A DNA stretch of 61,727 nucleotides, the filler included, from Bonamia ostreae (lineage: Eukaryota), in NCBI GenBank assembly GCA_040357525.1. It is 14 parts of 14 records of this genome, joined end to end, with 100 filler letters (N's around TTAATTAATTAA, not from the genome) between each part and the next. Parts side by side here need not be neighbours in the genome. Positions count along the whole stretch, not along the records: positions 8,917 to 13,265 come from JBDODL010000324.1; 13 more parts are not named here. One strand, written 5' to 3'. This document shows, one piece after another, positions 9,780 to 12,700 of the stretch. The notes under the pieces are model-generated. The model was not told where the DNA came from, did no database searches, and saw only the letters and a list, made by a program, of their open reading frames with translations. The position numbers and the translations under genes were made by a program. The number at the start of each line of letters is the position of its first letter. Position 1 is the first letter of the stretch.

Positions 9780-12700
9780 ATGGACGATTTGATCACTCTC
9801 AAGGATGCCGGGAACGATTTTTATAGGTCAAAGTTGTTTGACAAGGCCATTGATTTATATATTCGAGCTTATAAAAAAGCGAAAAACAAAGAAATAAATG
9901 GCATTGACGAATATCGAAGCACAATCTGCTTCAACATGTTTAAATTTTAACATGTCAAAGAGGGCAGAGCTATTTCGCGAAAGATAATTTTAGCGAAGCT
10001 TCGAGATTCTACGATAAAGCCATTTTTCACAATAAAAAAAATTTTAAAGCTTTTTTCAAAAAAGTACTTTTATTCGATTCAAAAGCTCGTTTTTTAGACG
10101 CTTTTGAAATTCTACTGTTTTTCTAATTATAATAAAGTTGTTTATCTGAGACTAATTTCAACAGAAATTCGATGTTCAGAGAAAAATTAGCCGAATATGA
10201 CAGAAGACTTATAACGGACTCCGAGTTCCAACATCAATTTCTAAACAAAGTTAAATCACAATTTTTAGACTTTGCAATTGCTAAAGCAAAAAAATGATTT
10301 GCAGAGAAAACGTACATTCCTCCAATATTCTTTTAAAGCTCTAAAATATTCTAAACAGACTTTTCCCCAAATTGCGGCAATATCAAAAATTGTTTTTGAA
10401 CACGACAATTTGGTTAATTTTCAAATTTTACATTTAAGTCCGTCGAAACACGTTCTTATGTTCTCCGTTCTCTCATTGAAATTTTCGGCAAAAACAAACA
10501 ACAAAATTTATTAGAAAATTGTAATATCTTTTTGGAATCTTTATTAGAAGATCTTTTGAATAGTCTTCGAAATGATTTGCAATCAAACAAACTGATTTTA
10601 AATGATGCAATATCATTTTGTTTGCAAAACTCCGAATTCTCGAAAATGGAAGACATTTTCCGAAAAGCGTTTTTGCCCGTTTCCAAAATTAGCCCCAAAA
10701 CCAATTCTATTTTAGAAATCTGCCTCAAATCATTAATCAAAAATCTTACAAAGTCATTAAAGCTCAAAGAAGATATTCTAATAAATTCAGACTTTTTCGA
10801 TAAAATAATTTCAGAATTTTCAAACCGTTTTGAAGAGACTCAATCAAACGAACAATTGTTCAAAACATTCTTAAGCTCTGTTGTTATTTCAAACGACAAC
10901 AATAAAATGTTATCTGAACTTGAAAACACAAAAATGGCGACAATTCACAAAAAGTACTTCGAAAGCTGCAACAGGGCAATAATCAACTTTATCGAAAGCG
11001 GTACATTGGAAACAGCGATGTCCTTGCTGTTGCTGGTAACAAGAGCTACTCCTTCAGTCGGAATAAAGATCGCAAACCAAAAACAGATTTTACAAGCCGC
11101 GGTCGACATTTCGCACGACAAAAGCAACAAAATCGTTTTCTATTCTTAAATCAAGTGGCTCTCCGCGGCAGAAATATTGGCTCTCGGCTGTTCAAACAAG
11201 CAGATTCGATTAACGATTGTGGATGCCGAGCTTTACCAAATGTTCGCAGAATTGCTGTTGCAGAACTTTGCAGAGAAAACGGTTTACGCGGATAAAGATA
11301 ATATTGCAAAAGCCAAAACGACATCGGTGGCGCTTCTAGCGCTGTCAAAATTAACTGCGATGTCGCAAAAAGTAAAAGATTTTGTTTTGAATTTTCGGTT
11401 GTCGGGAAACGGGGAAAACGCGAATATTGAACCTTTGGCGATTGTTTCAGTTTTTGATTAAATAAAAATTTTCCAAACTCGGTCAAAGCGATGGCTCAGT
11501 GGTTCGGACTAAGTGCACGCATTCGATTGTGCACGGGTTCGAATCCAGGTGTTGTCGTTTCCAAACTGATGTCGATAATGGAGATGTAGGTTTATCCGAA
11601 CTCCTAATTTGACTGAGGTTGCCTAAAGATTTCGGACCTTTAATGGCTGCACCAGACAATGGTCAGGTCGGGCGTGAGCCCCAAATTCAAAATTTAAAAC
11701 CAAAATTTTTCTTTCGATAAAATTTTTGATTATGTCTAAAATGAAATTTTTTAATTTAAGGCTTTTTCTGTTTTGGAAAAATTGAAAAATTCAGAAGAAC
11801 AAATCGTTTCAGACATTGTTGAAGCGATTTCTTTTCTTTCCGTTCATATCGAAATTAAACAGATTATCTGCAACAATGTTTTTACACAGTTATTATAATC
11901 GAAACATTTTTATAATTTGGACTTTTGTTTGAAAATTATTATATAACAAATGCTTATGGTTACTAAAAAGCTTTGTAATATTTTTTAATTACAATTTTTA
12001 GAGATTTTTGCTTAAAAGACTTTTTTATCGAAAACAACAAAAACAGACTTAAACAATTCATAAAATTTATCACTGAAACAGCTTTAAACATAGACACAGT
12101 ACCTCAAACTGTTATCAGAAACACTTTTAAAACACAATGAAAACTCTCTTATTCGTTACGGAGTTCTTCAAACCTTTTTGAGTTTCACGATGAGCAGCGG
12201 AGATTACGACAATCTATTATCTGAAAACAGCGAAACCGAAGAACTCGGCAAAGCGATCCGAAAAGGCCTCGAGAAAAACAAAAAAGACTTTTTCGAAAGC
12301 GTGAGCGAGAACGCCGGAACAGCAGAACAAATAGAAACTTTAAGGGAAAAGCTCATTGCAACAAAAATCGCTATTTCTGTATCTTCAATATGCCATAAAA
12401 CTTCCTTTATAAAGCTCGAACAAAACAGCGAACAGAAAAAAGACTTTTACGAGAATCGGAATAGCAAAAATGAGGACAAATCACTTTTATCGAATTCGAA
12501 GTTTAGCAACTTCGCTTTGGCCCAAACGCTCATTCTCATCCTGCACAATCTAGCGGTCCCTCAACTTTCAAGAGGAGCGCTCGCCCAACAAGGCGGCGTT
12601 TCAGCGCTTTTGTCTCTTTGGCGAAACTGCAAAAACGAAAAACTTTCCCGATTATCGGCGAACGGGATTTCAAAGCTGATTTGTTCGACAAATCCGAATC

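Follow-up and report, generated by a model that had tools for sequence, protein, structure and literature searches.

What is the tRNA-like element that lies in a putative intron of an UNC-45-like gene of Bonamia ostreae, a haplosporidian (Rhizaria) that lives inside the blood cells of the flat oyster? The element was noted within a 61,727-nucleotide (nt) stretch of the genome assembly, hereafter the window, and extends over about 11484-11710 (coordinates count along the window, and features are on its plus strand unless stated otherwise). The initial annotation had left a choice between a new short interspersed nuclear element (SINE) family and a noncoding RNA (ncRNA) driven by RNA polymerase III (Pol III) from a tRNA-like head. 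We find that the element carries both internal promoter boxes, is not a tRNA gene, is multi-copy, and has in common with the other copies a 5′ edge and a body unrelated to tRNA. Probably it is one diverged member, by now probably inert, of a tRNA-derived SINE family that the parasite genome carries in low copy number. So read, it would have the anatomy of a SINE: a head in which the A and B boxes are retained, then a body unrelated to tRNA, a short hairpin at the 3′ side and, as an A-rich tail, two units of 13 nt.

The two boxes are those of a type 2 Pol III promoter. The A box (TGGCTCAGTGG, 11492-11502) matches the consensus TRGCNNAGTGG exactly, and the B box (GGTTCGAATCC, 11536-11546) is an exact match to the consensus GGTTCGANNCC. 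Each is the sole exact match in the window, where matches with at most one mismatch number 7 for the A box (4.6 expected) and 17 for the B box (6.7 expected). The boxes stand in the correct order with 33 nt between them, within the range of about 30-60 nt expected of a tRNA-derived SINE. The good A box at 11492 and B box at 11536 first reported are borne out. The first run of at least four T after the B box, TTTTT at 11706-11710, is the expected Pol III terminator, from which a Pol III transcript of about 225 nt is predicted.

With the boxes as reference points, 11485-11557 is laid out over 73 nt exactly as in a canonical class I tRNA. This tRNA-like spacing, the boxes themselves and the 5′ edge of the other copies delimit a tRNA-derived head at 11484-11560. 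When the head is placed in the tRNA register by hand, however, only 3 of 7 acceptor pairs, 2 of 5 anticodon-stem pairs and 3 of 5 T-stem pairs form; the head thus fails to pair the acceptor, anticodon and T stems as a functional tRNA gene does, and the T and acceptor arms are indeed unpaired in the way originally described. ARAGORN, which allows introns in the anticodon loop, found 0 tRNA genes in the window, and Rfam at gathering scores had 0 matches there. The valid tRNA call that the initial annotation had named as decisive against its own reading was therefore not obtained. With the Rfam threshold relaxed to E-values up to 10 over 11300-11900, the element had a single match, to tRNA-Sec, whose 14 bits (E 8.8) fall short of the cut-off of 47. 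We conclude that the head is derived from a tRNA yet is not itself a tRNA gene.

Public sequencing runs indicate how many relatives the element has. A search with the gene stretch returned 24 runs, of which four, X1, X2, X3 and X12, were compared on 11100-12200 at a likeness of at least 80%; the remaining runs include X8 (RNA, mollusc metagenome, share 0.09) and others with small shares. X1 and X2 are sets of DNA contigs from mixed samples (801 and 823 million letters, respectively), X3 is a set of contigs that is RNA by guess only, and X12 consists of raw DNA reads with the same species label as X1, of which about 1,382 million letters (about 6/100 of the run) were read. Contigs matching the element, 80-99% alike, number 43 in X1, 52 in X2 and 29 in X3, and the element is thus not single copy. 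Divided by likeness (99% and above, 95-99%, 90-95% and below 90%), they amount to 2, 7, 10 and 24 in X1, to 4, 9, 12 and 27 in X2, and to 0, 3, 9 and 17 in X3. With the exception of contigs of the locus itself, found downstream of 11711, nearly all are confined to 11488-11623. They represent distinct loci: the letter at 11546 differs from that of the window in 15 X1 and 18 X2 contigs, and the share of records that continue into unlike sequence is 0.67 in X1, 0.58 in X2 and 0.78 in X3.

The copies have a common 5′ edge. In X1, four contigs begin to match at 11488 and four at 11493, with a median of 255 nt of other sequence before the match. Agreement within the consensus of the upstream flanks is 0.57-0.67 (4-6 contigs), compared with 0.55-0.50 for unrelated 30-mers of the window, and this small excess arises because the last 3-9 letters (GGC or GGGCGCGGC) belong to the element. 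The common edge and these letters together therefore place the 5′ end of the family near 11484, about 8 nt before the A box. On type 2 promoters, Pol III is expected to start at that distance upstream of the A box. Pol III would thus start about 8-12 nt before the A box, where the common edge of the family lies, and would stop at the T5 run at 11706-11710.

The shared part extends beyond the head into sequence that has no counterpart in a tRNA. Summed contig depth is highest at 11544-11617, with its peak in the bin 11544-11580, and the tRNA-unrelated body (11561-11669) is common to other copies at 80% likeness or more up to 11615-11623. Matches at this level stop at either 11571-11573 or 11615-11623, and the loose ends of the contigs resemble the continuation in the window. 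Judged by eye, the 5-contig consensus behind 11572 is the body of the window without two pieces, of 12 nt and 9 nt. Also by eye, about 70% of the next 30 nt are matched by the consensus that follows 11623 (7 X1 contigs), and likeness of about 70% persists in the loose-end consensus as far as about 11651. In X2, body (11593) and tail (11708) are connected by an exact contig of 116 nt. Of the two options first offered, the SINE family is the one supported by these data: the element is multi-copy, its 5′ edge is shared, its copies lie in unlike flanks, and a tRNA-unrelated body is shared beside the head.

These results bear directly on whether the element could be a single decayed tRNA pseudogene or a working tRNA gene of a non-canonical kind (split, permuted or intron-bearing). 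The canonical 73-nt spacing and the weak tRNA-Sec match would suit such a gene, but more than one copy of the element exists, the copies have the non-tRNA body in common as well, the boxes are in normal order and so not permuted, and ARAGORN finds none even when introns in the anticodon loop are allowed. In addition, the 5′ end of the other copies (GGGCGCG...) cannot pair with the shared 3′ side. This explanation is already largely refuted, and we regard it as extremely improbable.

The 3′ part of the element consists of the hairpin GGGC-GTGA-GCCC at 11670-11681, present in the sequence as first described, followed by the A-rich tail at 11683-11708, which is made of two 13-nt units, AAATTCAAAATTT and AAAACCAAAATTT (repeat family D1). 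These units are the kind of 3′ end expected of a SINE. Two X1 contigs end at 11573 and then run into A-rich sequence, as head-only copies that also have an A-rich end. X1 and X2 each have one contig in which 11525 is joined to 11679 with 12 different letters in between; these again form a GTGA-loop hairpin, and 11526-11666 is missing. In three further X1 contigs, the B box is immediately preceded by body-like sequence (agreement 0.98). The family is therefore modular, with copies that are short, long, deleted or tandem-like. The tail had also been called structured; hairpins exist in it, yet the folding stability of 11563-11710 is within chance (z -1.11, with 29 of 200 shuffles folding as well; z -0.13 for the opposite strand), and this description does not hold.

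CTGATG and CTGA motifs in the body recall a C/D small nucleolar RNA, but they are about 38 nt apart, lack a terminal stem and have no Rfam match; the family is moreover diverged and multi-copy, and this reading was rejected. A protein-level search with the 59-amino-acid (aa) open reading frame (ORF) antisense to the element gave no candidate.

The modular forms raise the question of whether the family is a repeat of another kind that happens to contain a tRNA-like piece, for example a tandem or satellite-like unit, a miniature inverted-repeat transposable element or a segmental duplication. The three X1 contigs with body-like sequence before the B box could be read in this way, as could a second locus that shares 11711-11811 at about 94% and the weak inverted repeats that bracket the region (28 nt, 71% complementary, I1). 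The match of the family begins, however, at 11488 or 11493 and not at these AT-rich, weak inverted repeats, most contigs continue into unlike flanks, and the common 5′ edge is just upstream of the A box, as a Pol III start predicts. We consider a repeat of this kind unlikely.

The second locus is seen in two contigs, of 595 nt (X1) and 826 nt (X2), which match 11711-11811 only (101 bases, about 94%) and begin where the locus's own contig begins. The second locus therefore shares the end of the intron and the first 51 bases of the next exon. It could be a partial duplication or a 3′ transduction.

Direct repeats around the element were examined as possible target-site duplications. The sequence TTTCCAAACT at 11470-11479 is repeated exactly at 11558-11567, and as a pair of 10-nt direct repeats it stands as first noted. 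The second copy lies inside the part shared by the family, where contig coverage is densest (bin 11544-11580), and it contains none of the variant positions listed. The pair is not a target-site duplication, because the copy at 11558 is internal to the family. Another exact 10-mer, TTTTTGATTA, brackets the whole element (11451-11460 and again 11723-11732, repeat D3). Its upstream copy is 24 nt outside the 5′ edge of the family, and the pair is probably due to chance. Repeats of at least 10 nt were found in 435 of 18,900 like-placed window segments for the 11470/11558 geometry, and in 360 of 12,366 like-placed AT-rich segments for the outer, 11451/11723 geometry.

The fold of the head is the feature that most recalls a functional RNA. 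In its minimum free energy (MFE) structure, 11486-11562 forms a single rod with the three helices named in the initial annotation (-33.5 kcal/mol, z -4.89), a stability that none of 200 shuffles reaches, and the claim that the head folds as one rod is thus upheld. The B box is nearly palindromic and pairs with the B-box-like string TGGTTCGGA in the D region. An internal duplication with 16-nt spacing, GTGCACGCATTCGA and GTGCACGGGTTCGA (11513-11542, repeat family D2, 86% identity), contributes a further helix: the GTGCAC/GTGCAC stem, at the place of an anticodon stem, forms because the duplicated GTGCAC is its own reverse complement. The rod is largely a by-product of palindromic or duplicated box sequences.

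Variation among the copies was compared with this fold. Other copies vary at 11 positions of the head, of which 3 are unpaired in the rod and 8 are paired. At the paired positions, 5 of 8 variants retain a standard pair, 3 of 8 break it and 0 are two-sided changes. When the five variants that prevail in the other copies are put into the head, the predicted fold remains a rod (-37.0 kcal/mol). The variants are compatible with a conserved shape and give no covariation support for it; they do not demonstrate conservation, because the retained pairs are C/T changes opposite G.

Could the copies then be a multi-copy family of Pol III ncRNA genes, cellular and not selfish, with a functional rod-shaped head as in vault RNA, Y RNA or BC1? 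The intact A and B boxes with the T5 terminator, the stability of the rod far beyond that of the shuffles and its persistence in the majority-variant version, the 5 of 8 paired variant positions that keep a standard pair, and the family pieces in X3 (guessed to be RNA) at depths of 46-2817 all agree with this proposal. The copies nevertheless differ by 10-20% and carry indels, and truncated and rearranged forms occur among them, which is the pattern of neutral decay. The 3 of 8 pair-breaking variants have no two-sided compensation, the rod follows from a near-palindromic B box and a duplicated palindrome (GTGCAC), and there is no match to an Rfam family. X3 has no contigs at least 99% alike on the locus, and its contigs reach 76-93 nt upstream of the head, which is unlike a discrete Pol III start. 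The option of a Pol III ncRNA with a tRNA-like head is therefore disfavoured by the divergence, indels, truncation and rearrangement of its copies, although the boxes and the rod on which it was based are real; we give it little credence.

The contents of X3 were considered further with regard to expression. This run holds 0.64 of the words of the gene, and 0 of its contigs are at least 99% alike on the locus, with nothing on 11433-11469 or 11655-11691. The family contigs extend 76-93 nt upstream of the head, and one match sits within a contig of 2,909 nt. Should X3 be RNA, transcripts contain members of the family, the copy in the window is not seen among them and no discrete Pol III product is seen, with the proviso that contigs cannot show where transcripts start or end.

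The SINE family that we favour could belong to the parasite or to something else in the samples. The depths of the copies in X1 (7.9-12.6) are like that of the contig carrying the unique flank (9.7). In X12, 0 reads fall on the element and 1 read falls on the whole stretch, and therefore whatever dominates X12 lacks both gene and family. The depths, the X12 result and the presence of gene and family together in X3 point to the parasite as the holder of the copies.

Alternatively, the family might be that of the host oyster or of another organism in the sample, and the copy would have arrived by horizontal transfer or would be host DNA joined to a parasite scaffold during assembly. Depth alone cannot assign copies to one organism in X1 and X2, both of which are large mixed sets. 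According to the accessible part of PMC11481361, tRNA-derived SINE families are numerous in bivalves and accumulate in introns, and some oyster families have fewer than 100 copies according to the accessible part of PMC4758252. On the other side, both flanks of the element are consecutive in-frame ORFs of one AT-rich gene, the exact 116-nt X2 contig joins body to tail, the copies have the depth of the parasite contig, and X12, with 1.38 billion letters of reads, has none on the element. Exact strings of the element were also absent from four of the five supplementary files of PMC4758252, a weak test from which the fifth file is excluded. A host origin is in our estimation distinctly improbable.

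Assignment to a SINE family of the parasite also has to be weighed against several observations that do not favour it. The family is known here from contigs matched to the copy in the window and not from aligned copies, and the runs are mixed; their summed depth does not give a copy number and may contain contributions from other organisms. The element has no assignable target-site duplication: the two 10-nt repeats each have a chance frequency of about 2-3%, one lies inside the family and the other is misplaced. The body fragment before the B box in three X1 contigs points to tandem-like or rearranged copies. Within the window, the other 13 pieces hold no second copy: blastn of 11440-11720 found only itself, the next-best match being 43 nt at 79% in the AT-rich flank. 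No reverse transcriptase was detected in the 57 ORFs scanned among the 83 of at least 110 aa in the window, and no partner long interspersed nuclear element (LINE) was seen there. Finally, oyster SINEs can also be low-copy, as two Crassostrea gigas families have 47 and 81 copies in the accessible part of PMC4758252.

With these points taken into account, we retain a tRNA-derived SINE as the probable identity of the element. RNA of master copies would have been transcribed by Pol III and converted to DNA by the reverse transcriptase of a partner LINE. The copy in the window would have been inserted in the sense direction between exons of a gene with tetratricopeptide repeat (TPR) and UCS regions, resembling UNC-45, and would now be spliced out together with its intron, presumably inert. 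A more speculative version, to which we attach only a slim chance, is a still-active, lineage-specific SINE in a haplosporidian, with abundant rod-headed RNA that is perhaps co-opted, or one exchanged between oyster and parasite.

The element can be compared with several known systems. The eel SINE UnaSINE1 and its LINE UnaL2, studied by Kajikawa and Okada in 2002, are said to form a 'stringent' pair in which a 3′ stem-loop and short terminal repeats are recognised by the reverse transcriptase of the LINE. As in the 3′ ends of such pairs, the GC-rich hairpin at 11670-11681 is followed by short tandem A-rich units, and the variant copy without the body retains the hairpin. In contrast to UnaSINE1/UnaL2, no LINE with a matching tail is known here, and a similar role for the hairpin would be purely conjectural. 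Like vault RNA and Y RNA, the element has A and B boxes, and its head takes a rod or panhandle form in the MFE fold, but it has no Rfam match to them on 11300-11900 even at E-values up to 10, and its copies are many, diverged, indel-bearing and truncated, unlike one or a few conserved genes.

The closest correspondence is with tRNA-derived 'complex SINEs', whose anatomy of head, body and tail has been described for molluscs and many eukaryotes in the accessible part of PMC4758252; modular forms are likewise found in the mollusc literature (PMC4758252 and PMC11481361, in their accessible parts). As in complex SINEs, the Pol III boxes are in a head that no longer folds as a tRNA and a tRNA-unrelated body is shared, and there is an end that is A-rich or made of short repeats, a common 5′ edge, 5′-truncated and modular variants, and an intronic site. 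The differences are that matching contigs are few (43, 52 and 29) and that the family is known here without assigned target-site duplications, a LINE partner or a transcript. Compared by description only, and with the available portion of PMC11481361, the element also resembles the bivalve HCD tRNA-derived SINEs, which are tRNA-derived, enriched in genes and introns, and prone to tandem arrangement. It differs in that none of the reads of X12, a run labelled with the same species as X1, fall on it.

Pattern scans for family members gave 0 matches in metagenome contigs and 0 in prokaryote genome contigs, and a 17-mer of the head had no match in a full-text literature search. In the accessible text of a 2024 paper on Ascetosporea comparative genomics that covers Bonamia ostreae (PMC11069148), the word SINE does not occur; repeats make up 4.33% of the genome according to the same text. 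The Bonamia ostreae transcriptome paper contains no transposon terms, and among the papers listed by a literature search for tRNA-derived SINEs in Rhizaria, none contains the word Rhizaria. Judged from the literature and Rfam, the SINE family is apparently undescribed in this protist group. It is an ordinary kind of element, and the finding is unsurprising in kind because tRNA-derived SINEs are common across eukaryotes. Should it be the parasite's own, Haplosporida/Ascetosporea would have, within the reach of the literature searches, a first recorded SINE-like retroposon, and the small, reduced genome would be expected to contain a partner reverse transcriptase. A multi-copy, species-specific sequence would be a useful target for sensitive detection of the parasite, and the presence or absence of single insertions could serve to type isolates.

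The window is composed of 14 pieces of about 4.3 kb arranged by descending length (4359 down to about 4275) with spacers between them (for example 4360-4459, 8817-8916 and 13266-13365), each made up of N44, 12 A/T bases and N44, and genes on separate pieces are not neighbours. The piece that carries the element (8917-13265) has 4,349 bases and 37.6% G+C. Based on base counts, G+C of the whole window is about 34%, in agreement with the 33.3% given for the Bonamia ostreae genome in Table 1 of PMC11069148, a source available in part.

The gene around the element was described as UNC-45, and for its downstream part this is supported. A 363-aa ORF at 12094-13182 matches UNC-45 of Drosophila (PDB 3now, E 1.3e-13) and of C. 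elegans (E 5e-6), and its Atlas structure model, in a record that begins at residue 33 of the ORF, superposes on UNC-45 clusters with a TM score of 0.73; Pfam gives weak Arm matches only. The upstream ORFs (9750-11443), in contrast, have no UNC-45 match, no Pfam match to UNC45-central or TPR and no PDB match, and TPR-like motifs can be recognised in them by eye. We infer, as a reasonable reading of both parts, one gene of about 920 aa with the TPR and UCS layout of UNC-45. An in-frame TAA (11147-11149) interrupts the UNC-45-like frame; it can be removed as a frame-keeping GT-AG mini-intron of 21 nt (11135-11155), which would be very short if real. Beside the element's gene, a CCT-zeta fragment is cut at the edge of the piece (8917), and its best relative has only 54% identity.

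The putative intron (11372-11760) was placed from the in-frame ORFs on both sides and from GT-AG sites read by eye. It ends at 11760 with the acceptor TTTAAG|. The better donor, AAA|GTAAAA at 11372, gives a length of 389 nt, whereas the 317 nt first reported is possible through a weaker donor, ATT|GTTTCA at 11444. The element makes up 58-71% of the intron. Neighbouring introns that can be placed are about 21, 59 and 113 nt long, and insertion of a SINE would explain the growth of an otherwise short intron to 317-389 nt.

Further observations concern other pieces of the window. The piece at 22234-26559 has 47.5% G+C (about 51% at 24-26 kb), compared with 21-39% for all other pieces. A WD40-repeat gene lies on it (ORFs 24452-25513 and 25793-26335), and either this gene may be exceptionally rich in G+C or the scaffold may come from a foreign organism and have been missed by decontamination. 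Evenly spaced blastn matches at 59830-60100 reveal tandem repeats of 43-nt period, either within a SART-1-like gene or next to it. WWE, RING and Deltex C-terminal domains at 38464-39641 give the layout of a Deltex E3 ligase in a rhizarian protist, an architecture that is mainly metazoan, and the Deltex-like ORF at 39297-39641 is 100% identical to an NCBI protein of Bonamia ostreae. On another piece, an ORF on the minus strand (13376-14110) encodes a GFAT-like glutamine amidotransferase in which about 40 residues precede the catalytic-type Cys (in ...GCGIVGF...), which suggests an N-terminal extension or an unrecognised intron.

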